Below the pieces are notes generated by a model. It was given only the letters and a program-made list of their open reading frames with translations, made no database searches and had not been told where the DNA came from. This document shows, one piece after another, positions 3,104-29,029 of a stretch of 64,000 bases of DNA. The translations under genes were made by a program, and so were the position numbers. Source of the stretch: Candidatus Liptonbacteria bacterium (lineage in GTDB: Bacteria > Patescibacteriota > Minisyncoccia > UBA6257 > 2-01-FULL-56-20); contig JACQBP010000040.1 of the NCBI GenBank assembly GCA_016194445.1, positions 20,402 through 84,401 of the forward strand, written 5' to 3'. Each line of letters opens with the position of its first letter. The first letter of the stretch is position 1.

Positions 3104-3117
3104 CGGTTTTTCTTTTA
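3104..3117 (+). terminator. third copy of the GCGGTTTTTCTTTT motif, at the convergent junction of the kinase gene and hddC
   Basis: Exact 14-mer shared with 1789-1802 and 2383-2396; T-rich tail; preceding stem is weak. Confidence 0.3.
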
Positions 3118-3936
3118 CTTCAAATTTTTAAGGTAATTTTCGACAAAATGGTAGCGGTCGACAGTGCCGATGTCTTTGCGCCACTCCCCGGCTTGAAGTT
3201 GGTAGGCATAGTATTTGAAACCCTTGCTTAAAAGATCGGGTACTAAATTGTGATCTATCTCGTAATATTTATTTTTGGGGATATATTCCAGAATTTTTTT
3301 TGAGAAAAGATAGGGCGCGGACATGCCGTAAAAACGCGGAATGGCGCGGACTGGCACCTGCTGGCGGTCGCTGATCGACGCGGATCCCGATTCTTTTTTT
3401 TCTGATCTGATAAGGCGATCGAGCAGATCTTGGCTATGGGGTTTGATTAAAAATTCTTTGACTTCATGGTTTTCTCCGACGATGGCTAAATCGGAATCTT
3501 CGGGATGGTCCGTCTTTCGAACTGTGCCGACTCCAATGGCGTCTTTTTTTGAGAAATACAAATTTTTAAGCTCAGAGTAATCAAGTTGATAAAAAGTATC
3601 GCCATAAAGAACGAAAAAATAATCGCCAAGAGAGTCTTCGAAATCTTTGATGCCGCCGGCCGTACCTAAAATTTCGGGCTGTTCCAGAAAATAATTTATT
3701 TTGACGCCGAACTTTGAGCCATCGCCGAAATGCTCGGTGATGACATCCGGCAAGTAGTGAAGATTGATAAAAAATTCACTGATGCCATGTTTCTTAAGCG
3801 CTTCAATATGCCACTCGAGGAGCGGTTTGCCTTCCAGGGGCACCATGACTTTGGGGATCTTGCCTTGAGTGATTTCTTGGAGCCGAGTGCCCAAGCCAGC
3901 GGAGAGGATGATGGCTTGATGGATGATTTTAGTCAT
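3115..3936 (-). CDS. hddC: sugar-1-phosphate nucleotidyltransferase, likely D-glycero-alpha-D-manno-heptose 1-phosphate guanylyltransferase
   Basis: N-terminal ILSAGLGTRL pyrophosphorylase motif and GTAGG; 273 aa; operonic with gmhB, gmhA and a GHMP heptose kinase. The symbol is inferred from context. Confidence 0.55.
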   Translation of the reverse strand: MTKIIHQAIILSAGLGTRLQEITQGKIPKVMVPLEGKPLLEWHIEALKKHGISEFFINLHYLPDVITEHFGDGSKFGVKINYFLEQPEILGTAGGIKDFEDSLGDYFFVLYGDTFYQLDYSELKNLYFSKKDAIGVGTVRKTDHPEDSDLAIVGENHEVKEFLIKPHSQDLLDRLIRSEKKESGSASISDRQQVPVRAIPRFYGMSAPYLFSKKILEYIPKNKYYEIDHNLVPDLLSKGFKYYAYQLQAGEWRKDIGTVDRYHFVENYLKNLK

Positions 3937-3939: not shown

Positions 3940-4515
3940 TTATTGATTACTCGTGATGCGCTTGATGATTTTGATGGCTCCCTGAAGATTTTGGGTAGTG
4001 AAATCGGGTTTTATTTTATAATAATTGTCTTTGCCGGCGTAGCCGGTTTTAACTAAAATAGTTTTAAGTTTGGCATTTTTACCGGTCAAGATGTCGCGGG
4101 TGTGGTCACCAATCATAAAGCTTTTTTTGAGGTTAATTTTATATTTTTTGGCGGCTTTCAAAATCATTCCGATATTAGGTTTGCGACAATGGCATTTTAC
4201 CCGATATTTTTTTAAGTTGGCGTTGGGGTGATGGGGGCAGTAGTAGATCGCGTCAATTTTCGCCCCTTTTCTAGCCAGGCGGCTAATTAAAACGGCGTGG
4301 ATTTTATCAACTTCTTTTTCGGTAAGCCAACCGCGGGCGATGACTGGTTGGTTCGTAATCACGATGACGAGAAACCCCAGACGGTTGATTTTTTTGATGG
4401 CTTCAGCGGCGCGGGGTAAAATTTTTAGCTGTTTTAAGTCGCGGAGGACATCGACTTCGCGGTTAATGGTGCCGTCGCGATCTAAGAAAACGGCTGGATG
4501 ATGACTCATAAACAA
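3940..4515 (-). CDS. gmhB: HAD-family D,D-heptose 1,7-bisphosphate phosphatase
   Basis: VFLDRDGTIN HAD motif I, later GD..TD; 191 aa typical GmhB size; heptose operon context. Confidence 0.6.
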   Translation of the reverse strand: MFMSHHPAVFLDRDGTINREVDVLRDLKQLKILPRAAEAIKKINRLGFLVIVITNQPVIARGWLTEKEVDKIHAVLISRLARKGAKIDAIYYCPHHPNANLKKYRVKCHCRKPNIGMILKAAKKYKINLKKSFMIGDHTRDILTGKNAKLKTILVKTGYAGKDNYYKIKPDFTTQNLQGAIKIIKRITSNQ

Positions 4516-4563: not shown

Positions 4564-5172
4564 TTATGATTTTGATACAAGATGATCGAAATAGTCTTTG
4601 AAGTATTTAATGATGAGGTGAAGAATTACACCATGTACTCCTTCGACAACAAAATAATTTCCTCCTTTCGTAGGAACATGAAGTTTCGCATCTGACAACT
4701 GATTTAAAGTGTTGGTATTTTCAAAACCGGATAAACCGATAACTGGTACCTTACGTTTCTTGGCAAGCTCAACTGCTTTTACAATATTGGCTGAATTGCC
4801 AGAACTTGAAATTGCAATGATCGCGTCCGCGTCCTGTAAATAGTTTTGAAGAGGGCCGGCGAAGACCATGTCGAATCCCACATCGTTCGCCCAAGCAGTT
4901 AACTCTTCCTCGGTGGTTGGCAGGCGGATGGCTTGAAACCGACGGTGGTGTTTGTCGAGCTCATGACCAGTATGGCCAAAAACGGTTTTATTAAAATCGC
5001 AGACCCAATGAGTGGCGAGAGCAAGGGAACCGCCATTACCAAAAACATAAATGCGGCCGTCGCGTTCATAGGCGGCTTCTAGAATATTTAAAGCTTTGGC
5101 AATTTCTAGGTTAGGCAAGTTTTTAAGCGCGCTTTCTGTTTCCGATACAAATTCTTTTATGTAGCTTTCCAT
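4564..5172 (-). CDS. gmhA: SIS-domain phosphoheptose (sedoheptulose-7-phosphate) isomerase
   Basis: GNGGSLALATHWVCDF matches the GmhA signature GNGGSAADAQHFAAE; 202 aa. Confidence 0.6.
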   Translation of the reverse strand: MESYIKEFVSETESALKNLPNLEIAKALNILEAAYERDGRIYVFGNGGSLALATHWVCDFNKTVFGHTGHELDKHHRRFQAIRLPTTEEELTAWANDVGFDMVFAGPLQNYLQDADAIIAISSSGNSANIVKAVELAKKRKVPVIGLSGFENTNTLNQLSDAKLHVPTKGGNYFVVEGVHGVILHLIIKYFKDYFDHLVSKS

Positions 5173-5177: not shown

Positions 5178-6200
5178 TTACACGAAATTTTTATGATAAT
5201 GATCGCCATTATATAGGATTTCCGCCCCGCTTTGGACAAACTTGACTGGGATTTCTCTAAATTCATTTAAACTTTTTTCGGTGGCTACTTTTTTAACTGA
5301 TTCAAGGATGGCATTTTTTTTATCTAAAGGACAGATGAATAAAACACAACCGCCGCCGCCGGCGCCTAAGATTTTACCGCCCCAGGCGCCAGCGCTCACG
5401 CCAGCGTTATAAAGATCGTCGATAGTGGAGTTAGAAACATTCGACGCGAGACTTTTCTTTTTTAACCAACCTTGATGAAGCATGGCGCCGAGCCCCCGGA
5501 TGTCACCGGAGATGATTCTGTCCGCAAAATCAGAGACGGAGTCGGCCATTTCAGAAAGAGTTTGGAAGTTGTCATTAGTATTAGCTTTTTGCTCAGTCAA
5601 GACAGAAGAAGCATCGCGAGTGATACCGGTATAGAAAATTAAGAGACTATCTTCGAGTAAAAGACGTTTTTTGTAATCGATCAAAAGCGGAGAGACATCG
5701 ACAGATTCATCGGGATTGAATTGAAGAATGTTGAAACCACCGAAAGAGGCGGCGTACTGATCCTGTTTGCCGATGGGTTCACCCAAGAGATTAATTTCTA
5801 AGTGACTGGCCGCTTCGGCCGCTTCGCGCTGGTCAATCTTTATACCTTGAAAGGCGTTTAGAACTTTAATTAAAGCCACAGAAAAGCTGGAAGAGGATCC
5901 GAAGCCGGTTTTGGCGGGCATACTGGCGAAAGAAGAAATTTCTATATTCTTTTTTATATTTAAATTCGAGAGGGCGGCTTTGATGCGGGTGTGTTTTAAA
6001 TCTTCTAACTGGTCGACAGATTCAGTGATGGAATAGCGGGCGGTAACTTTGTCGATCATGGGAGTGCGGTTAACGACCACGTAGACAAATTTGTCGATGG
6101 CAGTTGAAATCACCCGGCCCGGGCGGCGGTGATAAAAATCGGGGAGGTCAGTGCCACCCCCAACAAAGCTGATGCGTAAGGGTGCTCGAACTACAATCAT
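5178..6200 (-). CDS. hddA: GHMP-family sugar kinase, likely D-glycero-alpha-D-manno-heptose 7-phosphate kinase
   Basis: N-terminal APLRISFVGGGTDLPDFY and a GHMP ATP-binding G/S-rich motif (GFGSSSS); 340 aa; next to gmhA and gmhB. Confidence 0.55.
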   Translation of the reverse strand: MIVVRAPLRISFVGGGTDLPDFYHRRPGRVISTAIDKFVYVVVNRTPMIDKVTARYSITESVDQLEDLKHTRIKAALSNLNIKKNIEISSFASMPAKTGFGSSSSFSVALIKVLNAFQGIKIDQREAAEAASHLEINLLGEPIGKQDQYAASFGGFNILQFNPDESVDVSPLLIDYKKRLLLEDSLLIFYTGITRDASSVLTEQKANTNDNFQTLSEMADSVSDFADRIISGDIRGLGAMLHQGWLKKKSLASNVSNSTIDDLYNAGVSAGAWGGKILGAGGGGCVLFICPLDKKNAILESVKKVATEKSLNEFREIPVKFVQSGAEILYNGDHYHKNFV

Positions 6201-14096: not shown

Positions 14097-14834
14097 TCAA
14101 AGGCGAGGTTTCCTGTAGGATGGGGTAAAATAAATACGCCAGATGAGTTTACTGATAGTGCTCGCGACAAGCAGAAAGTTTTTTAGACTCAAGGCCTTGG
14201 CTTTTCCTCCCTCTCTTTTTTGCAAGCGCGTTTCCACTTCTTCGTAGGAGACGCCGGATTTTATAAGCTCGATTAAAATCTCAGACATAAAGGCGAACCC
14301 AGGTGTCCACCGGGGCAACTGCAGTAAAAGATCACGACGGATAAGACACGCACCATTTAAATAATGTAGCTTAAGACCGAAGAGAATATTGAGTATAACA
14401 ACATAACTACGAGAAATAATCTGTCGCGAGCGGGACCTTATTTCAGCATTTGTCGGATAAGAAATGATAAGATCAGTAACACCAAGTTTCTTAACGACAT
14501 TGATGAGTGTTTGTCCGGACTCTTCGTTATCGCCTGGGACCATCATCACATACTTTCCGCGAGCTTTCTCCACGCCCTGCCGGAAGGCGCCGCCGATATT
14601 ATACGGCTTTTGATTGTGAATAGCGGTGATTTTTGGGAATTCGCTTTTCCGAACCGCGTTATCCATCAGGGCGCCGGTGCGATCGCTGCTTCCATCATTC
14701 ACAAGAATAAGCTCGCACGGCGTTTTAAGCTCGCGAGCTACTTTTTGGATGACGGTTTGGATGGTCGCTTCGATAGCCTGCTCCTCGTTCAAGGCCGGAA
14801 TAATAATGGAAAGTTGGAGTGGAGAATCTGTCAT
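14097..14834 (-). CDS. polyprenyl-phosphate glycosyltransferase (GT2, DPM1/ArnC/GtrB-like)
   Basis: 245 aa short GT2; LSIIIPALNEE...VNDGSSDRT. Confidence 0.6.
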   Translation of the reverse strand: MTDSPLQLSIIIPALNEEQAIEATIQTVIQKVARELKTPCELILVNDGSSDRTGALMDNAVRKSEFPKITAIHNQKPYNIGGAFRQGVEKARGKYVMMVPGDNEESGQTLINVVKKLGVTDLIISYPTNAEIRSRSRQIISRSYVVILNILFGLKLHYLNGACLIRRDLLLQLPRWTPGFAFMSEILIELIKSGVSYEEVETRLQKREGGKAKALSLKNFLLVASTISKLIWRIYFTPSYRKPRL

Positions 14835-15298
14835 TTGGGTTTCGAACTCAACCAGGCAAGAAGATCCCGAAAATCTTCTTTATGATTAAAAGCTAAATCC
14901 ATTTTTAAAATATCCGGAACAGGTAAATAAGAAATTTTTTGTCCTTCGGTATGATAAGTGGTGGCCAGGGATAGATTCGCCAAGGCGTAAAAAACAAAAT
15001 TGTGGTTATACCAAGTAAATTGAGAGTCATGAGAAATCCAGAAGTAGTCTCGGAAAAATCTAATTTTTTGAAGATTAACACCGAGTTCTTCTTTGACCTC
15101 GCGGACGACGGTGACTTCGGGATCTTCAAGCACTTCTAGGGCGCCGGAGATGGGAGTCCATTTACCAGGTTCTCTGGTTGCACTGACCGTCCTTAATTGC
15201 ATTAAAAATTCTCCGTTTGAGTTTTCCAGGTAAATTGACACACCCCGAGCTAGCTTGGGTTCTTTTTTAAAAAAATCCTCGTCTTGGTTAAAAACCAT
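14831..15298 (-). CDS. NUDIX hydrolase
   Basis: Nudix box GALEVLEDPEVTVVREVKEELGV. Confidence 0.55.
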   Translation of the reverse strand: MVFNQDEDFFKKEPKLARGVSIYLENSNGEFLMQLRTVSATREPGKWTPISGALEVLEDPEVTVVREVKEELGVNLQKIRFFRDYFWISHDSQFTWYNHNFVFYALANLSLATTYHTEGQKISYLPVPDILKMDLAFNHKEDFRDLLAWLSSKPK

Positions 15299-15410: not shown

Positions 15411-17294
15411 TCAGACTGAAGGCATACTGCCTAAGAACTGGCCGGGTCTTTCGCCCCGGAGTAGAGGCTTAGCGGGTTTTTTCCTCATAAAACGCTTCCA
15501 AACATCGAGCCGCAAGGTTTCGAGGAAGAATGCCCACGTTTCGCGCCTACTTTGGTGCATCGGGTAGACTCGTTTCTGGTGCATGTAGATCTTGGAGGCC
15601 GTATAGAGCCACTGATAAACTCGGGTGACCCAACGGAAAGGTATTTCGGCGAACACGTAGACGATGAGTCTACTGAGCGGTTTCGACAACCACCGCATGA
15701 AGCGGTTCCGACTCCCCGAGAACAAGATACAGACAGTTCCGAGGAGGGCCAGATTTTCCATAACCGTTTTCTCGCGTTCAGTGAAACACCCGACGAGAGG
15801 AGACCGATTTTGGTAGCTGGCGTGTAGAGCGCCGTAGTCGCCGTCAAAGTACCCTTTGCGAATGAGGTATTGGGTGACCTCGGTTCGAGGGTACGGACAA
15901 AGTGTCCCGAATTCGCCAAAGCTAGTGTGTAGGTCGGTAGTGTAGAGCACCGATTGGCGGTCGTAGTCAAGCTGGCTACGGTGTAAGTCGGTTTGCCGGA
16001 GGCGATTTAAGATGAGTTGCCGGCAGGGCAATCCGTCTGGGTTGCTGAATTGGCTACGGATCTCTCGAATGACCTGCCCTAAGTCAACACTCTTTCTCCT
16101 CACCGGTTTGAAGTGTTGCGACTCTTCAACGATCTCCGCCACCTTCTCGTCGAAATCTCGGTCAAGCAGACTCGGGATTTTTGGAGCAGGAATAGCCAGG
16201 ATAGTGTTGGAAAAAGTGCAAATACCCAGCTCCTCGGCGGCTCGGAAGCCTCCCTGGATTTCCTCGTCTGACATGTCGCGGGCAATAATGTGATCCCGAA
16301 TGAAAGAATTGCCCGACTCGATTGACATGGTTAGAGAGAAGATGCCGGCTTGCTTCAGAAGTGGCAGGGCCCAAGGATTTTTCATAACCAGGTCGCATCG
16401 GACTAGGCAGTGAAAGGGCAGACCGACTTGCCTTGGGTAAATCTCGGCAAATTTCTCTAACCACTCACGATCTGGAGGGAAAATGGGAAAGACGTCGTCG
16501 TAGTGCTTGATGAAGCGAGTGGGCCAATCCCTCTTCAGCTTCGCCAGCTCGTCACAATAACGTTCGGGCGAGTATCGTTGGAGGATGTTGCCCTTCCCCC
16601 CATACATTGCATTGAAGTCGTGTTCAAAGCAGTAGGTACAGCGGAATGGACAACCGCGCCCAGCCATGTGCGTTCGTTTGAAGCGCTGGCCGAAAAGCGT
16701 GGTTTGATAAACCAGTTCGCGGTCGAGGTAGGGCAGATCGTCCAGGTTGCTTTTCCGATCCGCATAGAAATCCGGAGTGACATAGGTTTCGGTGTGCGGT
16801 TTCCCGGAGGGATCGATGACGGAAAGTTGTTTTAACACCCGACCACAGTTTCTCTTCGTGATCATGTTCGGGATTTCGTCGATACGGCCAGACCCTTCTT
16901 CGAAAGCATCGAGGAAAGCCGGCCAGGCGTCATCGCATTCAAGAAATCCAATGGCGTCCAGACAAGGTTCTTCGGCGATCACTCCCGGATAGGAGCTGCA
17001 ATAAGGACCACCTAAAACCGTCATCACGCTTGAGCCCATTTTGCTTTTGATGGCGCGCATGATATCGATGTAGGCTCGGTGAGAACCAGTGATGGCACTC
17101 GCTGCCACGATGTTCGGCTTTAGTTCTTCAACAACCCGCATGATGTCATCGCGCTCAAGGAGAGCGAGATGACAAGTCCTCCAGGGAGCGTTTTGTTTCG
17201 TTAGCGCAGAGAGGAGCATGAGGTTCATAGGTTCGGTCATGTCTCCGTCGTCTCGCATAATCCACAAAACACGCGTTTCGCTTTTAAGCGGCAT
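15411..17294 (-). CDS. B12-binding radical SAM protein (class B rSAM methyltransferase-like) with about 250 aa C-terminal extension
   Basis: N-terminal cobalamin-binding-like domain, then CPFRCTYC (CxxxCxxC) radical SAM cluster motif; 627 aa. Confidence 0.6.
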   Translation of the reverse strand: MPLKSETRVLWIMRDDGDMTEPMNLMLLSALTKQNAPWRTCHLALLERDDIMRVVEELKPNIVAASAITGSHRAYIDIMRAIKSKMGSSVMTVLGGPYCSSYPGVIAEEPCLDAIGFLECDDAWPAFLDAFEEGSGRIDEIPNMITKRNCGRVLKQLSVIDPSGKPHTETYVTPDFYADRKSNLDDLPYLDRELVYQTTLFGQRFKRTHMAGRGCPFRCTYCFEHDFNAMYGGKGNILQRYSPERYCDELAKLKRDWPTRFIKHYDDVFPIFPPDREWLEKFAEIYPRQVGLPFHCLVRCDLVMKNPWALPLLKQAGIFSLTMSIESGNSFIRDHIIARDMSDEEIQGGFRAAEELGICTFSNTILAIPAPKIPSLLDRDFDEKVAEIVEESQHFKPVRRKSVDLGQVIREIRSQFSNPDGLPCRQLILNRLRQTDLHRSQLDYDRQSVLYTTDLHTSFGEFGTLCPYPRTEVTQYLIRKGYFDGDYGALHASYQNRSPLVGCFTEREKTVMENLALLGTVCILFSGSRNRFMRWLSKPLSRLIVYVFAEIPFRWVTRVYQWLYTASKIYMHQKRVYPMHQSRRETWAFFLETLRLDVWKRFMRKKPAKPLLRGERPGQFLGSMPSV

Positions 17295-17369: not shown

Positions 17370-17885
17370 TTAGGGCTGCTCCGAAGATGGAAAAGTCCGA
17401 CAAATTTTTTGGATGATATCGGTAGAATGTGCTAACTCTAAAACAAATTCAACTTTTCCACCGTATGATTCTACTAAGTTTTTATCTAATACGAATCCGG
17501 AAGTGGGATGGGTTTGATACTCCGCACCTTTCACCAAAAAATGAGGCTGCACTGCCTCGATGATCTGGCGGGGACCATAATCATCATTGATAATAACGAA
17601 ATCAACCATCTCGAGTGCGGCGATCCACATTGATCTTAGATTTTGATCGAAAATAGGCCGGTTTGGCCCCTTCCGAACATAGTGGTCACCGACAAGAACA
17701 ACGTAGAGAATATCGCCCTTACTTTTGGCGCGCCAAAAGTAATCAATATGGCCCGGGTGGACAAGATCGAAAACGCCATCACATTGAACCAGCACCTGAC
17801 CTTCTTTTTTAAGTTCCCGAGCTAAGGCGATAAAATCTGCGGGAGTTTTTATTTTTGAGTTAGCTCTTTGATTAACAAAACTCAT
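17370..17885 (-). CDS. cytidylyltransferase-fold enzyme, HldE domain II-like heptose 1-phosphate adenylyltransferase
   Basis: CDGVFDLVHPGHIDYFWRAKSKGDILYV...RPIFDQNLR aligns with RfaE/HldE C-terminal domain (GCFDILHAGH); 171 aa. Confidence 0.55.
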   Translation of the reverse strand: MSFVNQRANSKIKTPADFIALARELKKEGQVLVQCDGVFDLVHPGHIDYFWRAKSKGDILYVVLVGDHYVRKGPNRPIFDQNLRSMWIAALEMVDFVIINDDYGPRQIIEAVQPHFLVKGAEYQTHPTSGFVLDKNLVESYGGKVEFVLELAHSTDIIQKICRTFPSSEQP

Positions 17886-17931: not shown

Positions 17932-18924
17932 TTATACATCTCCGGGAAGTTTCGCCATAAGTTTAAGGATGTCGGCCGTGTCTTCTCCTCTTCCTTCCTG
18001 TGAACTTTTGAAGGCTTCCATGTCAATGTGGTGGACATTCTCGGGAAAAGGAAATTTACGTTCTTTCACCTCTTTTACGTATTGAGAGAATACATCAAGA
18101 ATAACCTGCCCCGCAGTTTTATTCCCGACATCTGATTGGTAGTGTTTGATATATTTTGGCACAGGTCGGGTACCCCAGTCGTAGAAATCAATGGGATCGT
18201 GACCAATTAGAAGTTGCCCATCAGTAAAGCGTCCCGATCCGATACCGTAGACGGGGATTTTGAGCTCGTGATGGATGATTCCAGCAACTTCTTCGGTGAC
18301 GCCCTCGAGAAGAATCGCGAAGGCTCCGGCGTGTTCAAGCGCCTTGGCGGTTTTCAATAATTCCATGGTACTTTCTACGGTTTTCCCTTGGATGCGATGC
18401 CCCCCCATCTCATGAATTTTTTGGGGATTTAAGCCCAAGTGCCCCATGACAAGCACCTCCGCGTTCGCGATCGCCTCAAAGCGAGGAAGAAGCTTCATGC
18501 TCGCCTCACACTTCACCGCAGCACACTTCGCTTCTTTAATAAATCTTACAGCGTTGCGCACCGCATCTTCGTTAGACGCTTGATAGGCGCCCAAGGGCAT
18601 ATCCCCGACCGTAAATACTGGCCCAGCGCCGCGCACGGCGGCGGAGGCAAAAACAATCATCTCGTCCATGGTGACGGGAAGGGTGTTCCCATATCCCAAA
18701 ACTGTCATGCCAAGAGAGTCGCCGACGATAATAACATCGACGCCCGCTTTCGCCGCGGTCCTGGCAAAGGGATAATCATAGATACTCAAGGCCGCCACTG
18801 GAATCCCTTTTTCTTTCATATTCTGAAGGGTCGTGACTTTGACGTCGGAGCGTGGCTTTTTTGGAGACACCTCGAGTTGGGCCGCTGGTTGTGGTGAGTG
18901 CGCGGGATCAATAAGATCTGGCAT
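17932..18924 (-). CDS. PanB-like (ketopantoate hydroxymethyltransferase fold) enzyme with N- and C-terminal extensions
   Basis: LSIYDYPFARTAAKAGVDVIIVGDSLGMTVLGYGNTLPVTMDEM matches the PanB core (MTAYD...VGDSLGMV.LGY.ST.PVT.DDM); 330 aa against about 264 for PanB. Confidence 0.5.
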   Translation of the reverse strand: MPDLIDPAHSPQPAAQLEVSPKKPRSDVKVTTLQNMKEKGIPVAALSIYDYPFARTAAKAGVDVIIVGDSLGMTVLGYGNTLPVTMDEMIVFASAAVRGAGPVFTVGDMPLGAYQASNEDAVRNAVRFIKEAKCAAVKCEASMKLLPRFEAIANAEVLVMGHLGLNPQKIHEMGGHRIQGKTVESTMELLKTAKALEHAGAFAILLEGVTEEVAGIIHHELKIPVYGIGSGRFTDGQLLIGHDPIDFYDWGTRPVPKYIKHYQSDVGNKTAGQVILDVFSQYVKEVKERKFPFPENVHHIDMEAFKSSQEGRGEDTADILKLMAKLPGDV

Positions 18925-18982
18925 AATTTTAAACGATAGGCTATTAGCAGGAAAAGGTCAATCTTGGAATTTGATCTCCAAA

Positions 18983-20155
18983 CTAATGCTCCTGTGTAAA
19001 GTCACGGATCTGCTCAACTGCTTTTTGAAGTTCCTGCAATGGAGCGGCAAAACTGAGACGTACATACCCGGGCGCAAGAAAGGCTTCTCCGGGAACCACG
19101 GCTATTTTTTTCTCATCAAGGAGACGGGCGCACCACTTGGCAGACGTGCGGATCTTTCCTTTAAGAAGACGGCGAACATCAATGAAGAAATAAAAGGCTC
19201 CCTCTGGCGGCGCGAAGGAGATCCCATTGATTTTTGAGAGCGCGTTGATTAGAAATTGTCTCCGAGTTTGAAACTCCCGAAACATAAGATTTAACGACTT
19301 TTGAGAACCGGAAAGAGCGGCAAGCGCGGCCTTTTGCGCGATAGAGGAAGTGTTTGAAGTAGTTTGGCTCTGAAGCGAGGTGATGGCCTGAATGATCCAC
19401 TTGGGGCCGGCAGCGTATCCAATTCGCCACCCAGTCATCGCGTAAGCTTTAGAAAATCCATTGACGGTGAGAGTGAGCTCCTCGATACCCGCACCGAGCG
19501 ACGCGATAGAGTGGTGTTGGCCTTTGTAAAAAATCTTCTCGTAAATCTCATCGGATATAACGAAGAAGCCTTTTTTCTTCGCAAGATGCGCGATTTTGAT
19601 CAATTCAGATTTTTTAATCACCGCTCCGGTGGGATTAGAGGGACTATTCAGAAGGAGAGCTTTAGTGTGGCGAGAAACCTTATTTTGAACATCTTGAGCG
19701 GTAAGTTTAAACGGAGGGAGAAGCGGAATAAAAACGGGGGTGGCGCCGGAAAGCTTAATTTGTTCAACGTAGGTAGTCCAGGTGGGAGTGGGAACTAAGA
19801 CCTCATCCCCGCGACCACAGAGCGCTTGAAATGCATGGTAGAGAACTTGTTTTGTCCCCACGCCGACAACGATTTCGCTGGGCTGGTAATGGATATGGTT
19901 GTCACTCAATAATTTTCGAGTAATGGCTTTCCGAAGCTCAAGAATACCCGGCGTTTCGGTGTAGTGCGTAAAACCTCTTGCCATCGCCAACGCCGCCGCC
20001 CTTCGGATATAAAGAGGGGTTGGAAAATCAGGTTCTCCTAGCCCGAGGTTAATAACCGGGATACCGGATGTCTGTAGGGCTTTGACTTTTTCATCAAGCG
20101 CGAGAGTGGGCGAAGAAGAGAGGTGTTGCACTCGGGAAGATAAAGCATCTCTCAT
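18983..20155 (-). CDS. class I/II PLP aminotransferase (AspAT-like)
   Basis: NPTGAV and SKAYAMTGWRIGY (PLP lysine region); 390 aa. Confidence 0.65.
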   Translation of the reverse strand: MRDALSSRVQHLSSSPTLALDEKVKALQTSGIPVINLGLGEPDFPTPLYIRRAAALAMARGFTHYTETPGILELRKAITRKLLSDNHIHYQPSEIVVGVGTKQVLYHAFQALCGRGDEVLVPTPTWTTYVEQIKLSGATPVFIPLLPPFKLTAQDVQNKVSRHTKALLLNSPSNPTGAVIKKSELIKIAHLAKKKGFFVISDEIYEKIFYKGQHHSIASLGAGIEELTLTVNGFSKAYAMTGWRIGYAAGPKWIIQAITSLQSQTTSNTSSIAQKAALAALSGSQKSLNLMFREFQTRRQFLINALSKINGISFAPPEGAFYFFIDVRRLLKGKIRTSAKWCARLLDEKKIAVVPGEAFLAPGYVRLSFAAPLQELQKAVEQIRDFTQEH

Positions 20156-20180
20156 GGGCGTATTATACCGCAGAAACTCC

Positions 20181-22016
20181 TTACTCCAGCTTCTGCCATC
20201 CCTCTTTTTCTTTTTTCCTCGGAAGTGGATCCACGATCATATTCCCAAGAAATTCTTCATCAGGTAGATAGGGTTGCATGTCTTCAAGCGGCCTTCCAAA
20301 ATTAAGTCTGGGAACAAGCGTTTGGTTGGTATCGATGAGTACATTACAGATGACAGGCCGGTCGCTTTTCAAAGCTTTCTCGATAGCGCCCGCCATTTCG
20401 TCGGGTTTCTCGACAGCAAAGGCATCAATCCCATAGGCCTCGGCAACCTTTACAAAGTCTGGCATGGAGTAACCACCCTCGGGAGTGCTGGCGTAATAGC
20501 GACCATCAAAATAATTATCTTGGAACAGCTTGATAATACCCATACTGCGATTGTTAAGAATAAAAAGCTTAATCGGCAATTTATAGTGCGCGATAGTTTG
20601 AAGTTCTTGAATATTGAGCTGGACGCCACCATCGCCATCTAGACAAACAATCTTCTTCCCCGGAGCGGCGAAGGCAGCGCCAATAGCGCCGGGGACCGCG
20701 TATCCCATCGGAGAATTGGCAAAGGCCGTGAGTAACTTTTGACCAGATTTGATTTGCCATGATTGCATCGTCCAGACCAAATTGCCACCCTCGTCAACAA
20801 CAATAATCTCTCCTGGTTTAACGTGATCAGAGAGAGTTCGAACGAATGAGTAAGCATTAATGAAGGGCTGATTAAAATATTCAGGAAGTACTGAAGGATA
20901 TTTAAGCCACCATTCGTTCGTTTTCTTAACCCACAAATCCGCGTCAGGAATTTTCGCCGTCGCGAGTTCTTCCAGCACTCCGGCAAGAAACTCTTGGGCA
21001 TCCCCACAAACCTCGATGGCTGGTTTAAAATCTCGATACTTCTTAAACTCGGCCGGGTCAATATCAACCATAACGACCTTGGCGTTACGGGCAAACCAAT
21101 CGACTTTGCCACCAGTTTGCCGAGAGTCTAACCGAGAACCAACCGAGAGGATAAAATCACTGTTCTGGATAACAAAATTAGCCGCTCGGTTTGAATAAAC
21201 TCCCAGTGAACCTCGAAAGAGTGGGTGGTCGTGGGGAATAATATCAAAACCACCCCAGGACACCACCACCGGGATACCTAACTTCTCAAGAAGAATCCGG
21301 GCCGACTCTTCGGCTTTCGCGTGTTTGACTCCTCCACCAAGCAGAAAAACCGGTCGCTTAGAATTAGATAACAAGGCAACAGTTTCGCTCGCTTTTTTTC
21401 TTAAAATATTTTTAGGATCTGTGGAGGAATCGCTTGTTGCGGGTGGAGTAAATCCTTCGAGTAAATCAACATCGATATCAGTAACTTGAAGGTTCATAGG
21501 GAGATCAATTAGAACTGGCCCCGGTCTCCCGGTGGTGGCAATCCAATAGGCTTTTTCTAATTCGTAGCGGATGCGTGAGGGATCAGAAATCCAAATCGCA
21601 TATTTCGTGATGGGTTTTACGATATTCACAATATCGGTTTCTTGAAAGCCGAGTTGACGAGGACGCAGGGGTCCCTCGACGCTCTCAATGGATTCCCGAA
21701 CATTAACCTGACCAGTGATGAAAAGAGCGGGGATAGAATCAAAATAACAATCACAAATCCCTGTGATTAAATTAGTTGCCCCGGGGCCGCTGGTAGCGAT
21801 GGCAACGCCGATGCCGGGTCCGATGCGTGAATAGTTCTCGGCAGCCATGGCAGCGGCTTGCTCGTGTTGCATGCAGACATAGTTCAAATCCCCTTTTTCC
21901 GCAAACCGTCTTCCAATGGCATCTACTAGATGCGCCACGGAACCACCGGTTACTGAAAAGATATGTTGGGTGCCGCGCTTGGCTATAAAATCCACAAGAT
22001 AATCAGTCAGTTTCAT
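20181..22016 (-). CDS. thiamine-pyrophosphate enzyme of the acetolactate synthase large-subunit family
   Basis: N-terminal TPP-Pyr domain (GGSVAHLVDAI...GPGATNLITGI) and C-terminal TPP-PP GDGG motif (LDGDGGVQLN); 611 aa. Confidence 0.7.
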   Translation of the reverse strand: MKLTDYLVDFIAKRGTQHIFSVTGGSVAHLVDAIGRRFAEKGDLNYVCMQHEQAAAMAAENYSRIGPGIGVAIATSGPGATNLITGICDCYFDSIPALFITGQVNVRESIESVEGPLRPRQLGFQETDIVNIVKPITKYAIWISDPSRIRYELEKAYWIATTGRPGPVLIDLPMNLQVTDIDVDLLEGFTPPATSDSSTDPKNILRKKASETVALLSNSKRPVFLLGGGVKHAKAEESARILLEKLGIPVVVSWGGFDIIPHDHPLFRGSLGVYSNRAANFVIQNSDFILSVGSRLDSRQTGGKVDWFARNAKVVMVDIDPAEFKKYRDFKPAIEVCGDAQEFLAGVLEELATAKIPDADLWVKKTNEWWLKYPSVLPEYFNQPFINAYSFVRTLSDHVKPGEIIVVDEGGNLVWTMQSWQIKSGQKLLTAFANSPMGYAVPGAIGAAFAAPGKKIVCLDGDGGVQLNIQELQTIAHYKLPIKLFILNNRSMGIIKLFQDNYFDGRYYASTPEGGYSMPDFVKVAEAYGIDAFAVEKPDEMAGAIEKALKSDRPVICNVLIDTNQTLVPRLNFGRPLEDMQPYLPDEEFLGNMIVDPLPRKKEKEGWQKLE

Positions 22017-23274: not shown

Positions 23275-24288
23275 TTATTTTAATTTGATTTCCTGCATGG
23301 TCTTCACGTTAAAATATTTGGTGTTGTTGAGTGAGTCTTCAAATTTTCCTGCTTTAAACGCTTCGATAAGGTCAGAAACAGCTCCACGGATGTCTCTTTT
23401 GGGTTTAAATCCTAGTTCTTTAAATATTTTCTCGGATGATATGTGGTAGGATCTTTTGTCGTCGCCGGCTTCTTGATGGTTAACCTTAACACTATTGCCA
23501 CTTGAGGATTCGACCTCCGATTTGACGATGTTGGCAATTTCAGAAACGGTATAGTTTCTGGCGCCAGCGTTGAAAACTTTAGAGTGAATTTTTTCACTAG
23601 GATGCGATAGGAGGTCAGAATAAAGATCGGTAATGTCTTCAATGTGGATGTTGGGCCTTTTTTGCTCGCCACCAAAAACAGTGATAATACCTTTACTCCA
23701 AGCGTGATTAGTTAAAATGTTTACTGTTAGATCAAAACGCATGCGAGGAGAATAGCCGCAAACCGTTGCCGACCGGATCGCCACTGCAGTAAAATAAGGG
23801 GCTCCTTCTTTCATTAAGATTTCTTCGCCTAACACTTTGAATTTGGAATAATCAGTGAGTGGTTCAAGGGGCAAATCTTCGGTGATGTTTTCTTCCTGTT
23901 TTAAACCATAGACACTCGAGGTGGAGGCAAAGATGAAACGTTTCACTTCAGCTTGGCGCGCGTGGGATACGACCTTGATCATGGCGTCGTAGTTAATTGA
24001 TTTGCCAAGTTCGGGATTTAACTCAAAACTCGGATCGTTAGAAATACAGGCAAGATGAATAACGGCATCAACGCCCAGAAGGGCTTCGCTCAGAGTATTG
24101 TCATTACGGATATCGCCATGAATTTCTTCGAGGTTGGAATTTCGGTAACCGGCAAAAACGTTAGGTTCATATAAATACAAATCAAGCACTTTGACGCGAT
24201 AGCCTTTCTTTAATAGTTTGGGAACTAAAACAGAGCCGACGTATCCAGCCCCGCCAGTGACTAAAACCGTCTGGATATTACTCATCAT
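23275..24288 (-). CDS. NAD-dependent epimerase/dehydratase (extended SDR)
   Basis: VLVTGGAGYVGS Rossmann motif; 337 aa. Confidence 0.65.
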   Translation of the reverse strand: MMSNIQTVLVTGGAGYVGSVLVPKLLKKGYRVKVLDLYLYEPNVFAGYRNSNLEEIHGDIRNDNTLSEALLGVDAVIHLACISNDPSFELNPELGKSINYDAMIKVVSHARQAEVKRFIFASTSSVYGLKQEENITEDLPLEPLTDYSKFKVLGEEILMKEGAPYFTAVAIRSATVCGYSPRMRFDLTVNILTNHAWSKGIITVFGGEQKRPNIHIEDITDLYSDLLSHPSEKIHSKVFNAGARNYTVSEIANIVKSEVESSSGNSVKVNHQEAGDDKRSYHISSEKIFKELGFKPKRDIRGAVSDLIEAFKAGKFEDSLNNTKYFNVKTMQEIKLK

Positions 24289-24300: not shown

Positions 24301-25836
24301 CTAGTTTTTGAGCAGAGTGTTGATAGATTTTAACAAGGTGTTGGATTCAACGGAATGTTTGTTGCCCACGATAGTGACAGCTAGAGCTCCGACGGCATTA
24401 CCGATAAAACCGGCGGCTTCTACGGGCAGGCCAGCCCGGACTAAGGGCGAGGTGATGGCTAGAAAAGCATCACCGGCGCCAACCCGATCGAGAACACGAG
24501 TCGAGAGTACAGGAACTTTGTAAAGTTTTTTACCATCATACGATAAACAGCCCTCGTGGCCGAGGGTAACGATGATTCTTTTGGCCTTAAGTTTGTTGGT
24601 AACGGCGGCTAAAATTTCTTTCCATTCGTCCAGAGAAGCGACTTCTTTTTTCTTGGTGATCAGTCGGGCTTCTAAGTGATCAATACAGACAAAATCGGCG
24701 CGCGGATATTTGGTGGCCATATTGAAGCCAAAGTTAGCGCTGTTGGTTTGAGTATTCAAGGCCAGAAAGGGAGCATTGTGACTGAGGTAATCAATGAGGC
24801 GAGGAGTGAGGAGTCCGTGGCCGTAGTCTGCCACGATGACTAAATCATACATGGGTAAAACTTTTTTTAAATGGCTTAGAATTTTTTTCTCAAGAGCTTC
24901 GGGAATGAGCGAGTCTACGAAGTAGTAGACTTCAAACATTTTAGTTAGAAGTGGAGAGTCAATGAATCGCCGTTTGACGATGGTAGGGGCGGTGGGGTGA
25001 TAGAAAAATTGGGGCCGAACATTGGATTTTAGATGGGCTCGAATGAACTTTTCCTTGCTGTCTTTGGCGCCAAGACAAGTAAGGAGGTCAACTTGTTTGC
25101 AGTAACTAGTGAGGTGGTTCGCGCAAGCGATGGAGCCGCCGGCAAAAGCCTCTTCGTGTTCGTACCGAGCGGCAATAATGATATCTTTGGGCGTTTTATT
25201 CATGGCTCGCACATAGTGATACTCGTCAATAATCGCCTCGCCGATGATTAAAACTTTGTAATTTTTGATTTTTTCGAAGTAGCCCAAGATGTCTTCGAGG
25301 CTGAACCTTTTTTGAAATCCTTGGAGGAATTCTTGGGTGGCTTCGGGATAGGGAGTCAAAAAATTATTAATTAGTTTAGTGGAGCTGAAGGTGATGTCAT
25401 CGGTAAACTCGATTTTGCCTCCGACCTTTTTGACAGCTTCAGTTTCCTTATTAATACCGCCGCTGCTAATGGCCCTTTTCTTGCCGTATTCATTACCTTT
25501 GATATAAAAACTGGGTCGCACCGCATAAATGGCCGGAACGGCGGTGGGAGCATCATTCACGGCCACAAAATCAACGGCCGTCAAAGAAGCGACAGCTTCG
25601 GCTCTTAATTGCTCATTAAAGATGGGCCGGTCAGGACCTTTGTTGACATAACGATCCGAAGTAACGGTGACCACTAAGATATCCCCTCTTTTTTTAGCGG
25701 CGGCGAAATGGCGGATGTGGCCAGGATGGAGTAAATCAAAGACACCGTGGCATTGGACGATGCGTTTATGCTTGGCTTTCAAATCACGAAGTACGGGCGC
25801 AAGATTATTAAGTTTGTAAACTTTATTGACTGCCAT
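24301..25836 (-). CDS. bifunctional cytidylyltransferase + PfkB sugar kinase (HldE-like, reversed domain order)
   Basis: N-terminal CHGVFDLLHPGHIRHF adenylyl/cytidylyltransferase domain; C-terminal PfkB domain ending in DRVGAGDAFLA; 511 aa. Confidence 0.6.
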   Translation of the reverse strand: MAVNKVYKLNNLAPVLRDLKAKHKRIVQCHGVFDLLHPGHIRHFAAAKKRGDILVVTVTSDRYVNKGPDRPIFNEQLRAEAVASLTAVDFVAVNDAPTAVPAIYAVRPSFYIKGNEYGKKRAISSGGINKETEAVKKVGGKIEFTDDITFSSTKLINNFLTPYPEATQEFLQGFQKRFSLEDILGYFEKIKNYKVLIIGEAIIDEYHYVRAMNKTPKDIIIAARYEHEEAFAGGSIACANHLTSYCKQVDLLTCLGAKDSKEKFIRAHLKSNVRPQFFYHPTAPTIVKRRFIDSPLLTKMFEVYYFVDSLIPEALEKKILSHLKKVLPMYDLVIVADYGHGLLTPRLIDYLSHNAPFLALNTQTNSANFGFNMATKYPRADFVCIDHLEARLITKKKEVASLDEWKEILAAVTNKLKAKRIIVTLGHEGCLSYDGKKLYKVPVLSTRVLDRVGAGDAFLAITSPLVRAGLPVEAAGFIGNAVGALAVTIVGNKHSVESNTLLKSINTLLKN

Positions 25837-26596: not shown

Positions 26597-27283
26597 TTAT
26601 AGCTGGCTGGCGGTTTGATACCAGATCGAATCCGGAGATTGGATCAGGCCCCAGCACCTGAAGCGCCAGAGGGCGGCTTGGGTGAGACTACAGATGGTTT
26701 TGATCTTACGCACCTCTTCGGGAGGGAAGAATCGCACATGATCGATCTCTTCGTTTGGTTCGGGATGTGATCCAGAAGATCCCAGACCTACCAAAGTCGC
26801 GAAGAGTTCGTGGGCGGCTCCACTAAGCGCTGGGAGGGCGTGGACAAAACCGATGGAGGCCGCCTCTACGACTTTGAGTCTCATTTCCTCCAGCACTTTC
26901 TCTAAAGGAGTGAGAGCGAGGCCATGAACAGCCTCGTATTCCTCGATGCCGGAGCCATACTTTAGAACGCCCAGGATCTGGCTGGGATCTCTGGCGAACG
27001 CAACCGCCGAAATCTCTGGCGGAATGACACTGAACCGCCGATGGAAAACAAACCCCAGATGTCCATCGGACTGACGAATCACGATATGAAGTTCACCCCG
27101 CCGTGATTCAATGGCGATGCCTTCATAGGCCACCTCTCCGGTTGATACATTAACCGCATCGATGATTTGGATGGCCGCGCCGTGAATTGCGTTTTCGAGT
27201 CGGCGTTTCCTCGGATCCCACCGCCATTGTTTTCCAAACCGGCTCTCGGGTCCGGGTGGACGGACGATTAGTCTTGTGCTCAC
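26597..27283 (-). CDS. hypothetical protein (228 aa), possibly a degenerate NUDIX-fold
   Basis: Intact ORF in the GC-rich segment; no clear motif. Confidence 0.35.
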   Translation of the reverse strand: MSTRLIVRPPGPESRFGKQWRWDPRKRRLENAIHGAAIQIIDAVNVSTGEVAYEGIAIESRRGELHIVIRQSDGHLGFVFHRRFSVIPPEISAVAFARDPSQILGVLKYGSGIEEYEAVHGLALTPLEKVLEEMRLKVVEAASIGFVHALPALSGAAHELFATLVGLGSSGSHPEPNEEIDHVRFFPPEEVRKIKTICSLTQAALWRFRCWGLIQSPDSIWYQTASQL

Positions 27284-27521
27284 TCATAACTCCTTTCTAT
27301 GAAAATAGCTACCGTTAAATTCGTTTCCGTGGGTTAGCTCAAGATGCCAAAAAGCTGACTATATTATACTGATGATGAAAGAGAAGTCAAAAACCACGGG
27401 CTTTAGCCTGTGGTTTGAGAGTTGTTCTCTCCTGCGAGAGAAACTGGCTTGACCCTCAGCCTAAAGACCGGGGCTTGCGCTTGGAGTGTCAACGCGGGGA
27501 TGCGGAGCCGTGATATTGCAA

Positions 27522-27923
27522 TCACGGCTCCACTCGACGACCAGCAAGGAAATCCTCAAATCGCTTCCTTTCTTGTCTTTTTCTCTGTCTCTCGTCGAGA
27601 TGGCACCATATCCAATCTATCCACCAAATTGGCACAGCGCCAACGAGTGTAACGGAAAGATGCCAGTGACCCCAAAAAGGGATGGTGGGGTTCACGCGAG
27701 CTTGTTCCAGATCGGCGAGAAAAAAGGTGACGACAAAAAAAGACAGGAGACCGATTCCAAGGATGTGGGACTTTTCAAGCCAACCACCGACGATAACGCC
27801 AATGGCGCCCATGAAAATTCCTTGCAGGACAGTGAATCCAAGGTGCTTAGTAGCGATCACTGAAGTAACGAGAAACAAGGCAGTGAAGCCTATGGTTTCT
27901 CGCTTGGACCTTGTGGGTGACAA
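27522..27923 (-). CDS. hypothetical small membrane protein
   Basis: 133 aa with several hydrophobic helices; preferred over the overlapping + strand ORFs, which are less protein-like. Confidence 0.3.
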   Translation of the reverse strand: MSPTRSKRETIGFTALFLVTSVIATKHLGFTVLQGIFMGAIGVIVGGWLEKSHILGIGLLSFFVVTFFLADLEQARVNPTIPFWGHWHLSVTLVGAVPIWWIDWIWCHLDERQRKRQERKRFEDFLAGRRVEP

Positions 27924-28024
27924 GTGTGCCTCCTAGTTTCAACCCAAATCCACGTGGATTTGGGGCTGGCCACAATATAGGACTTTAAAAAAATAAAGTC
28001 AAGCCGACTAACTTTCTTTTTTAG

Positions 28025-29029
28025 CTAAGATAGATATTTAAACCAATCTTGGGTGGCTTCTTGAATCGTACTTTCCGTCCAAACGGGAGCGTTTTTCCAA
28101 TTATCTATTTCCTTAAGGACAATCTTAACTCCCTCTTTGATCGAAACGATAGGTTTCCAGTGAAGCCGGGTGGTGATTTTGGTGATGTCGGCAAAGGTTT
28201 GGTCGGGTTCGCCGGGGCGCTTTGGTAAATAGACTTTCTTTTCGGAACCGAGAAGCGTGACCAGAGTGTTGACACTCTCTGGGTGACCAGAGCCAATATT
28301 AAAAATTTCTCCGACACAATTTGATTCCGCAGCTTTCAAGAAAGCGTCGACGGCGTCGGTGACAAAAACAAAGTCGCGAGTTTGGGTGCCATCACCTACA
28401 ATGGTGAGCGGTTTTTGATTAGCTTTTTGGGCAAGAAAAACTCCGAGCGCGGCTCCATAACCGGAGTCGGTGCGAACGCGGGGGCCGTAGATATTAAACG
28501 GGCGCAAGGAAACCAGCGGCAGTTTGTAAAGTTTGGCGTAATGGAGGGCAAGATGTTCGCCTAGATACTTTGACTCGGCGTAAGGATATTGGGGGCGAAT
28601 CGCGGCGGTTTCTTTAGTGGGGTATTCATCGGGAATGCCGTAGCAACTCGAGGAGGCGGTATAGATAAATCTTTTCACTCCCCTTTTGCGACTAGCTTCA
28701 AGGATAGAGGCAGTCCCGAAAACGTTGCTCTCGAAATAATCAAGAGGTTTTTGGATGGACGGGATGAGATTGCTTAAAGCGGCTAAGTGGAAAACCCAAT
28801 CGACTCCTTCGAAAATTTCTAACATGGCATTAAAGTCGGTAATGTCAGCTTTAAAAACTTTTAAGCGAGGATGATTTTTGACGGACTCTAAATTGCGTTC
28901 GAGACCAGTAGAAAAATTGTCGATGACACTAACTGTGTGGCCATCTTTAATGAGTCGCTCGACAAGATGAGAACCGATAAATCCAGCGCCGCCGGTGACC
29001 ACGACTCTTTTTTGGTTGAAACTAGCCAT
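28025..29029 (-). CDS. NAD-dependent epimerase/dehydratase (UDP-sugar 4-epimerase/decarboxylase-like)
   Basis: VVVTGGAGFIGSHLVERL; 334 aa. Confidence 0.65.
   Translation of the reverse strand: MASFNQKRVVVTGGAGFIGSHLVERLIKDGHTVSVIDNFSTGLERNLESVKNHPRLKVFKADITDFNAMLEIFEGVDWVFHLAALSNLIPSIQKPLDYFESNVFGTASILEASRKRGVKRFIYTASSSCYGIPDEYPTKETAAIRPQYPYAESKYLGEHLALHYAKLYKLPLVSLRPFNIYGPRVRTDSGYGAALGVFLAQKANQKPLTIVGDGTQTRDFVFVTDAVDAFLKAAESNCVGEIFNIGSGHPESVNTLVTLLGSEKKVYLPKRPGEPDQTFADITKITTRLHWKPIVSIKEGVKIVLKEIDNWKNAPVWTESTIQEATQDWFKYLS

Follow-up and report, generated by a model that had tools for sequence, protein, structure and literature searches.

A nucleotidyltransferase-PfkB kinase fusion with the HldE domain order inverted, from a glycan gene cluster of a Candidatus Liptonbacteria bacterium

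The DNA stretch analysed here (the window) comprises 64,000 nucleotides of a Candidatus Liptonbacteria genome (assembly GCA_016194445.1, contig JACQBP010000040.1, positions 20,402 to 84,401) and carries, at 24301..25836 on the minus strand, an open reading frame (ORF) of 511 aa that starts with ATG and runs through 511 codons without interruption. Its product joins a nucleotidyltransferase (NT) domain to a PfkB-type kinase. An identical (100%) database protein belongs to a metagenome-assembled genome of Candidatus Liptonbacteria, within the candidate phyla radiation (CPR, or Patescibacteria). The gene and its parts are as follows.

24301..25836, minus strand: NT-linker-PfkB fusion protein (permuted HldE-like), from the ORF, its Pfam and NCBIfam domains and homologues of like architecture
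25366..25788, minus strand: NT domain, aa 17-157, with HPGH at aa 37-40 and FSST at aa 150-152 (TIGR02199 rfaE_dom_II)
25279..25365, minus strand: linker specific to the permuted family, aa 158-186, mostly helical by prediction (structure model, alignment and junction search)
24340..25278, minus strand: PfkB kinase domain, aa 187-499, with GAGDA at aa 453-457 (TIGR02198 rfaE_dom_I)

A sequence-only reading of the window had taken this gene for an HldE-like two-domain enzyme in inverted order, and the mapping with hidden Markov models agrees, placing rfaE_dom_II at aa 17-157 and rfaE_dom_I after it at aa 187-499. BLASTP against HldE of E. coli K-12 gives the kinase match at 13-299 and the NT match at 336-451, the kinase-then-NT order ascribed to that enzyme. 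Both domains find their best match in the rfaE models. The kinase covers the full length of TIGR02198 (model positions 2-308, E 2.9e-30) and is aligned end to end solely by this heptose-kinase model; the runner-up curated models were ribokinase for the kinase (51.8 bits) and glycerol-3-phosphate cytidylyltransferase for the NT domain (29.8 bits). At the level of Pfam, CTP_transf_like (PF01467; aa 30-140, E 2.8e-11, 44.2 bits, cut-off 21) and PfkB (PF00294; aa 194-496, E 2.3e-20, 73.6 bits, cut-off 25.8) both passed their cut-offs.

The catalytic motifs of the HldE type are all present in the fusion: HxGH, the serine/threonine-rich motif at the C-terminal side of the NT domain, and the aspartate of the kinase GAGD. 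Across the 22 family members aligned, which come from several phyla, HPGH (37-40), FSST (150-152) and GAGDA (453-457) do not vary, and Asp456 of GAGDA is presumed to be the catalytic base of the kinase. The linker is conserved in the same alignment. An AlphaFold2 (AF2) model, computed with the family alignment as input, reached a pLDDT (predicted local distance difference test) of 81.7 and a predicted template modelling (TM) score of 0.67; it places helices at aa 165-177 and 180-192 of the linker region, with pLDDT below 50 over aa 148-160.

By sequence, the closest entries of the Protein Data Bank (PDB) are HldC of Burkholderia pseudomallei for the NT domain (5x9q, E 7.8e-15) and HldA of B. 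cenocepacia for the kinase (4e84, E 9.4e-16). A Foldseek search of the AF2 model against the PDB returned HldA chains in all of the top seven places (E about 1e-22 to 1e-20, target TM score 0.78-0.84), with ribokinases next in rank (E 1e-15). The split HldA and HldC of Burkholderia are the closest solved structures for the respective domains by sequence and fold, and the window too has a standalone HldC-like protein. Among characterised proteins, the two fusion domains are nearest to HldC and HldA/HldE. Identity to E. coli K-12 HldE in BLASTP is 34% for the NT domain and 22% for the kinase, and the NT domain shares 34-37% with canonical HldE/HldC from E. coli, Sphingomonas, Paludisphaera and Bernardetia. 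Within the fusion family identity is 40-70% in both domains, against 20-37% to the canonical enzymes, so the permuted family represents a distinct and coherent lineage and not a recent rearrangement of hldE.

An assembly frameshift or chimera, raised by the sequence-only reading itself, is excluded, because the same contiguous junction recurs in hundreds of independent protein clusters and on complete plasmids of cultured bacteria. A homologue search with the fusion gave 7,228 of 8,000 scored candidates at E ≤ 1e-5; the best 120 all have PF01467 followed by PF00294, with at least 50% identity and nearly all with a length of 505-520 aa. A query restricted to the junction (aa 120-260, covering the NT end, linker and kinase start) was compared with 1.84 billion cluster representatives and matched 578 of them (clusters at 50% identity) at E ≤ 1e-10 and 1079 at E ≤ 1e-3. 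All of the 150 matches listed run in a single stretch over the junction, at about residues 125-260 where the protein is full length. Two cultured species, Azospirillum oryzae (KACC 14407, WP_149200362.1) and Solidesulfovibrio carbinolicus (DSM 3852, WP_129356083.1), also carry the gene on finished plasmids; identity is 42-43% over 99% of the length, and the annotation there is merely 'PfkB family carbohydrate kinase'.

Scanning GTDB with a single genome for each species yielded at least 196 confirmed relatives, and 80 loci were kept. Bacterial carriers among these loci belong to Omnitrophota, Elusimicrobiota, Nitrospirota, Planctomycetota, Verrucomicrobiota, Bacteroidota, several proteobacterial classes, Desulfobacterota, Bdellovibrionota, Chloroflexota, Lentisphaerota and the Cyanobacteria-related Obscuribacterales, and archaeal carriers to Nitrosotalea, Nanoarchaeota and Methanomicrobia. 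Relatives with the NT-then-kinase order occur in at least 15 phyla; the inverted order defines a large family and is no local oddity. The phage genomes searched for the fusion gave distant relatives at most (identity up to 36%). Synechococcus phage Sf-FS3 (L103, 3007-6196; loci are cited by our own numbers) encodes NT (135 aa) and PfkB (261 aa) as separate, adjoining genes, NT first and kinase second, with 31% and 26% identity to the respective fusion domains, and therefore unfused arrangements exist. The phage pair is flanked by carbamoyltransferase genes, with a phosphoheptose isomerase gene about 1.7 kb downstream.

The neighbourhood of the family was counted on ORFs from 86 sequences (85 loci and the window), grouped into BLAST clusters and scored up to eight genes from the fusion in the 77 fusion-bearing loci. 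A short-chain dehydrogenase/reductase (SDR) of one broad similarity cluster (about 333 aa, which also takes in other SDRs of the window) is found in 61 loci, in 29 of them at position -1. A GmhA-like SIS isomerase lies within eight genes in 40 of the 77, directly downstream (+1) in 24, and a beta-type subunit of a transketolase or E1 enzyme in 37, its partner being E1-alpha (25) or Transketolase_N (23). These are thiamine pyrophosphate (TPP) enzymes. Other neighbours include SPASM radical S-adenosylmethionine (SAM) enzymes (27 loci), DegT aminotransferases (18), a small family 2 glycosyltransferase (GT2; 16), B12-binding radical-SAM enzymes (8) and a GmhB-like phosphatase of the haloacid dehalogenase (HAD) type (3). 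The conserved partners of the fusion are the SIS isomerase, the epimerase-type SDR, TPP enzymes, radical-SAM enzymes and the small GT2, and not GDP-heptose genes.

The SIS proteins near fusions have gmhA as their best models (77-105 bits, cut-off 209). In comparison with E. coli GmhA they keep His61, Ser119/121/124, His175 and His180, with Glu65 replaced by Asp. GmhB-like genes are found near the fusion in L011, L032 and L063, and contiguous with it in L092, which reads E1-alpha, transketolase-beta, GT2, SDR, GmhB-like HAD (129.5 bits on the beta-type GmhB model), fusion and SIS. As SDR, HAD, fusion and SIS are contiguous there, all four activities of nucleoside diphosphate (NDP)-heptose synthesis stand side by side.

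The fusion can accordingly be set beside E. coli HldE (RfaE), with which it shares a PfkB and an HxGH cytidylyltransferase-like domain in one polypeptide, the same catalytic motifs and the association with GmhA-like and sometimes GmhB-like genes. Unlike HldE it has the reverse domain order, and the helical linker of about 30 residues is found in the fusion alone; its context is a tailoring cluster (SDR, TPP, radical-SAM and GT2 genes) and not lipopolysaccharide (LPS) core genes.

In several loci the module adjoins nonulosonic-acid genes (pseB, pseC, pseF, NeuB and a CMP-sugar synthetase; L004/L005 1-8587, L098 1-11942, L087 19915-20501), which hints at a role in glycosylation islands for flagellin-type or surface proteins. 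Paired paralogous hydrophobic proteins of about 175 aa, ending in ..GxGG, stand by the small GT2 in L001 (13147-14198), L004 (12181-13232) and L002 (18441-19489), with none in the window. As phosphatases the pairs next to SIS in L001/L004 were rejected, being hydrophobic and membrane-protein-like; speculatively, they might form a heterodimeric flippase in the manner of ArnE/ArnF.

The other genes of the window that bear on the fusion are listed below from high to low coordinates.

28025..29029, minus strand: epimerase-type SDR, conserved fusion partner, 56-61% identity to the counterpart SDRs immediately upstream of the L001-L005 fusions
26597..27283, minus strand: 228-aa protein outside any Pfam family, a companion of the module, 58% identity in L090/L091 and 43-46% in L087
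26015..26560, minus strand: 181-aa HD-like protein, CPR-specific, 37 homologues, unnamed bar one JGI 'HD superfamily hydrolase'
23275..24288, minus strand: second SDR (Pfam Epimerase), start 12 bp downstream of the fusion stop codon, syntenic in L090/L091
22101..23231, minus strand: DegT-type sugar aminotransferase, PseC-/WecE-like (Pfam DegT, 355 bits)
20181..22016, minus strand: acetolactate-synthase (ALS)-like TPP enzyme (TPP_enzyme N, M and C; acolac_lg 432.7 bits, cut-off 538)
18983..20155, minus strand: class I/II aminotransferase, aspartate-aminotransferase-like (domain and NCBIfam search), syntenic in L090
17932..18924, minus strand: PanB-like hydroxymethyltransferase (NF001452 278.4 bits, cut-off 272; TIGR00222 231.2 bits, cut-off 207.55), syntenic in L090
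17370..17885, minus strand: standalone 171-aa NT, paralogue of the fusion NT domain (CTP_transf_like 49.5 bits, cut-off 21)
15411..17294, minus strand: B12-binding radical-SAM enzyme (Pfam), orthologue of the B12 radical-SAM enzymes of L001 and L004 (38-40%)
14831..15298, minus strand: NUDIX hydrolase (Pfam NUDIX)
14097..14834, minus strand: small GT2 glycosyltransferase, conserved with the module, 37-44% to the GT2 of L001-L004
5178..6200, minus strand: HddA-like GHMP kinase of the alpha/GDP route (GHMP_kinases N and C; NF049969 145.5 bits, cut-off 600)
4564..5172, minus strand: GmhA-like SIS isomerase, the sole one in the window (best NCBIfam gmhA models 80-88 bits, under their cut-offs)
3940..4515, minus strand: GmhB-like HAD phosphatase (NF006506, beta-type GmhB, 162.3 bits, cut-off 178)
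3115..3936, minus strand: HddC-like NTP_transferase of the alpha/GDP route (Pfam NTP_transferase 98.3 bits)

The strand, absent from the sequence-only reading, is minus for the fusion, the standalone NT and the GDP-heptose genes alike. The gmhA/hddA/gmhB/hddC set that had been described at 3.1-6.2 kb is found as a SIS, a GHMP kinase, a HAD and an NTP_transferase gene at 3115-6200, about 19 kb from the fusion, and holds the window's only SIS and GmhB genes (3.9-5.2 kb). The association of the HldE pathway with gmhA and gmhB is seen for the family, while gmhA and gmhB of the window lie 19-20 kb off. The window SIS falls in the same BLAST cluster as the fusion-adjacent SIS genes and keeps the catalytic residues. 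The GDP-heptose route encoded by this set starts, like that proposed for the fusion, from heptose-7-phosphate; it differs in using a GHMP kinase and an NTP_transferase fold, which are not homologous to the fusion domains, and the alpha anomer.

The conserved SDR (28025..29029) shows an SSSCYG/YxxxK signature and no dehydratase Asp-Glu pair, and a role as 4,6-dehydratase was rejected on the lack of that pair. As HldD it was rejected too, since GalE and LegB score above heptose_epim (126 bits, cut-off 274); it is assignable no further than epimerase-type. The SDR that adjoins the fusion (23275-24288) was rejected as the family partner: it shares 27-29% identity with the SDR conserved at -1, and 28025-29029 is the orthologue of the latter. 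In L087 the homologue of the 228-aa protein stands between a transketolase-like beta subunit and a 624-aa radical-SAM enzyme. The 181-aa HD-like protein, which in the window lies between the 228-aa gene and the fusion, was considered for the missing 7-phosphatase and rejected, as a CPR family of housekeeping context that is in none of the other 90-odd loci. Elsewhere the family sits among smpB, infC, rpmI and rplT, for which reason the ORF is not counted as a pathway enzyme; it is probably outside the pathway.

A close relative (L090/L091, groundwater CPR) has 69% identity and synteny over the whole stretch. Its order is YfhO, Exo_endo_phos, SDR, an inositol-monophosphatase-family phosphatase, the 228-aa protein, fusion, SDR, DegT, ALS-like TPP enzyme, aminotransferase, PanB-like enzyme, standalone NT, a histidine phosphatase and the B12 radical-SAM enzyme. 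The inositol-monophosphatase-family and histidine phosphatases of L090 are missing from the window, which has the NUDIX and the 181-aa HD-like ORF instead. At the inositol-monophosphatase site of L090 the window shows a gap of about 740 bp (27284-28024) with short overlapping ORFs at 27486-27863 on the plus and 27522-27923 on the minus strand, the latter hydrophobic; a remnant of the phosphatase gene in this gap was rejected for want of a tblastn match. The ALS-like TPP enzyme is syntenic in L090 and next to a standalone NT in L089. Together with the PanB-like enzyme and the aminotransferase it forms a trio (17932-22016) inside a CPR glycan operon, syntenic in L090/L091, that may build an unusual acyl or branched substituent and not pantoate or valine.

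Beyond these genes, a glycan super-cluster occupies 30-54 kb of the window; SDRs and glycosyltransferases are numerous in it, and it also has FkbM methyltransferases, a second NTP_transferase and Wzy_C. Seven SDR epimerase/dehydratase genes lie at 34-52 kb (at least 10 in the whole window), along with four Glyco_trans_1_2, two GT2, two FkbM methyltransferases, a DAO oxidoreductase, Wzy_C and YfhO. With 3-29 kb included the super-cluster exceeds 50 kb, almost all on one strand, which is unusual for a small CPR genome.

The separate 171-aa HldC-like gene pointed out earlier is confirmed at 17370..17885 as an ORF of the CTP_transf_like, rfaE_dom_II-like type. Of all models TIGR02199 scores it best, with 111.8 bits against a cut-off of 181.5. 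It is 43% identical to aa 17-168 of the fusion and 34% to the NT domain of E. coli HldE; for the NT domain, identities to canonical HldC/HldE of 31-37% were measured. Its homologues form a small family, all standalone and of about 165 aa, that adjoin TPP enzymes, radical-SAM or B12 radical-SAM enzymes and GT2, often with the fusion and SIS pair. A member of the window's cluster is near the fusion in six of the 77 loci, and directly upstream in five (L069, L073, L078, L081 and L083; Nitrospirota, Planctomycetota and Omnitrophota). Standalone NTs sit in like clusters elsewhere, which shows that the design of two NTs with one kinase recurs and is no accident of this genome. A Logan contig of viral look (L088, SRR21686411, 1-19494), with NUMOD4/HNH genes and many unannotated ORFs, carries two standalone NTs, two SPASM radical-SAM genes and E1/transketolase fragments of the module.

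The sequence-only reading had spoken of an adenylyltransferase and of ADP-type as well as GDP-type heptose activation. The GDP-type set stands; the ADP label is not established, as both NTs remain under the HldC/HldE cut-offs and the STTR5 motif is missing. This motif, (F/L)XXGRSTT with arginine at position 5, has been tied to CTP/UTP promiscuity (PMC11573728). It is in neither NT protein: the fusion reads ..DDITFSSTK.. and the standalone NT ..LELAHSTD.., where E. coli HldE has FEDGCSTT; B. pseudomallei HldC has FEHDRSTT (STTR5) at the place of ITFSST in the fusion. Its absence is not diagnostic of the nucleotide (PMC11461863), and the attempt to assign nucleotide specificity from STTR5 was dropped, the missing motif being uninformative.

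On balance, and with confidence slightly better than even, the fusion is read as a permuted NDP-beta-heptose synthase that would serve a modified-sugar pathway of a surface glycan and share gmhA and gmhB with the GDP-heptose genes. This interpretation builds on the domain identity, the intact catalytic motifs, the closest relatives and the linkage, at the level of the family, to GmhA-like and occasionally GmhB-like genes. [quoted passage not shown] GmhB (3940-4515) would then take off the 7-phosphate, and the N-terminal HPGH domain would join the beta-1-phosphate to an NTP, giving NDP-beta-heptose. Tailoring of this nucleotide sugar could fall to the SDR at 28025-29029, the second SDR, DegT, the ALS-like TPP enzyme and the B12 radical-SAM enzyme, and transfer to a surface polymer to the small GT2, possibly with YfhO (29862-32198). 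The hddA/hddC pair (GHMP kinase and NTP_transferase) would make the alpha/GDP form from the same pool of heptose-7-phosphate. The HldE domains catalyse non-consecutive steps, with GmhB acting between them (PMC11573728). For this reason no channelling is needed and either domain order is workable; a permuted version, free of mechanistic constraint on the order, is therefore unsurprising.

A number of observations weigh against this interpretation. The scores stay well under the equivalog cut-offs, with 143.4 bits for the fusion on the bifunctional HldE model NF008454 (cut-off 521), 105.5 bits for the kinase on TIGR02198 (cut-off 345) and 102.7 bits for the NT domain on TIGR02199 (cut-off 181.5), and the kinase shares 20-24% identity with HldE/HldA of the four canonical sources named above. 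Of the HldC motifs assigned to heptose-1-phosphate binding by docking (TNG, NSD, KG and EXTP, together with KGG; PMC7993394), KG alone is retained in the 22-member alignment and four of five are replaced, TNG by CHG, NSD by TSD, EXTP by (A/W)PTA and KGG by KG(N/S) (CHG, TSD, APTA and KGN in the window), a weak test since the motifs come from docking. The lid segment of the kinase is GKSPKExII in the permuted family and RISPEAPVP in HldA and E. coli HldE. No SIS gene adjoins the fusion in the window, gmhA standing 19 kb off within the GDP-heptose set. In about 45% of the well-covered loci no SIS gene is nearby, a GmhB-like neighbour is rare (3 of 44), and a two-subunit TPP enzyme is as frequent as SIS (26 of 44), which may indicate some other, ketose-derived sugar as the substrate. 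The full-text literature searches returned no biochemical report on any member of the permuted family.

Several of these points would equally suit the same anomeric kinase and NT chemistry acting on a different sugar phosphate, for instance that of an octose or another higher-carbon or branched aldose formed by a C2-transferring TPP enzyme and a GmhA-type isomerase, an explanation that we hold to be possible but somewhat improbable. The GDP-octose route of lincomycin, with LmbR, LmbN, LmbP, LmbK and LmbO, offers a parallel. Split transketolase or E1 alpha/beta genes occur in those 26 of 44 loci, level with SIS, and the window and L089/L090 have the ALS-like TPP enzyme in their place. A kinase identity of about 22% to canonical HldA/HldE, the altered lid, the family-wide change of the predicted heptose-binding motifs, and the position of SIS, HAD, kinase and NT under the heptose-pathway cut-offs all point the same way. 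Yet all four core enzymes are still closest to heptose enzymes, and positive evidence for any specific alternative is lacking. The TPP enzymes may moreover act later, on the nucleotide sugar, or merely supply sedoheptulose-7-phosphate; branching of a nucleotide sugar by a TPP enzyme is known from YerE in yersiniose synthesis.

Activation of a non-sugar alcohol (a polyol, hydroxy acid or phosphonate-type compound) as its NMP conjugate, in the manner of TagD or Fom1, is considered unlikely. The B12 radical-SAM enzyme would use the conjugate as its handle, which the NUDIX hydrolase would take off afterwards. This idea springs from the gene order standalone NT (17370-17885), B12 radical-SAM (15411-17294) and NUDIX (14831-15298), all on the minus strand, which recalls, as a lead only, the transient cytidylylation of fosfomycin biosynthesis by the Fom1 CyTase domain, Fom3 (a B12 radical-SAM enzyme) and FomD. 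In both cases a small cytidylyltransferase of the HxGH type is paired with a B12 radical-SAM enzyme, and a hydrolase follows downstream. Standalone NTs elsewhere also adjoin TPP and radical-SAM genes, a NUDIX gene closes the homologous plasmid operon of Azospirillum oryzae, and the two NT proteins have weak PDB matches to the Fom1 CyTase domain 5x3d (E 5e-4 and 1e-4). Against this, the sequence similarity to Fom1 is weak (E about 1e-4), HldC ranks far above Fom1 or TagD for both NT proteins, and the PfkB domain aligns end to end with the heptose-kinase model alone. The window has no phosphonate genes, with neither phosphoenolpyruvate (PEP) mutase nor phosphonopyruvate decarboxylase, its gene of the PEP-mutase superfamily passing the PanB cut-offs. 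The idea is a better fit to the standalone NT than to the fusion. An assembly or frameshift artefact of two genes, for which the adjoining separate NT and PfkB of Sf-FS3 in the same order might be cited, has a negligible probability in view of the 511-codon open frame, the conserved linker, the 578 junction-spanning representatives and the finished plasmids of two cultured species.

With the NDP-beta-heptose synthase as the favoured reading, the chemistry of the enzyme is probably familiar, and its arrangement and conserved tailoring neighbourhood are the uncharacterised part. Commentaries on Tang et al. (Science 2024) divide the heptose nucleotidyltransferases (HENases) into mono-domain NT, kinase/NT and isomerase/kinase/NT types (PMC11461863, PMC11573728). 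NT-then-kinase is not among the types given in those commentaries, and the fusion would be a fourth arrangement. Heptose enzymes are described there as occurring generally in bacteria and archaea, which is true of the permuted family too. Our full-text literature searches (for the PF01467 plus PF00294 architecture, and for heptose with radical SAM and transketolase) found no description of an NT-then-kinase family, and databases hold its members under generic names such as 'PfkB family carbohydrate kinase' or 'adenylyltransferase/cytidyltransferase family protein'.

A broader proposal, which we put forward tentatively and regard as rather doubtful, is that the NT-first, PfkB-second enzyme marks a widespread pathway. 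Carbon branching by TPP enzymes and modification by radical-SAM/B12 enzymes would act on an NDP-beta-heptose, perhaps in CDP- or UDP-linked form, or on some other sugar that derives from GmhA, before it passes to surface glycans; the recurrent second NT would nucleotidylate a second intermediate, providing the B12 radical-SAM enzyme with a handle that NUDIX removes. NDP-beta-heptoses are precursors of cell-envelope glycans and have since 2018 been recognised as innate-immune agonists sensed by ALPK1. If true, the proposal would assign a physiological role to non-ADP heptose nucleotides and define higher-carbon surface sugars of a new class; for CDP- and UDP-heptose the roles have been stated to be unknown (PMC11573728).

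The inverted order alone would hardly surprise a specialist. It is the size of the family, its LPS-less hosts and its TPP/radical-SAM context that make it a reasonable target, for which the two cultured carriers provide an experimental entry point. That organisms without LPS, among them CPR bacteria, Chloroflexota and archaea, carry the permuted family suggests that heptose-type sugars serve surface glycans in a way yet to be explored.

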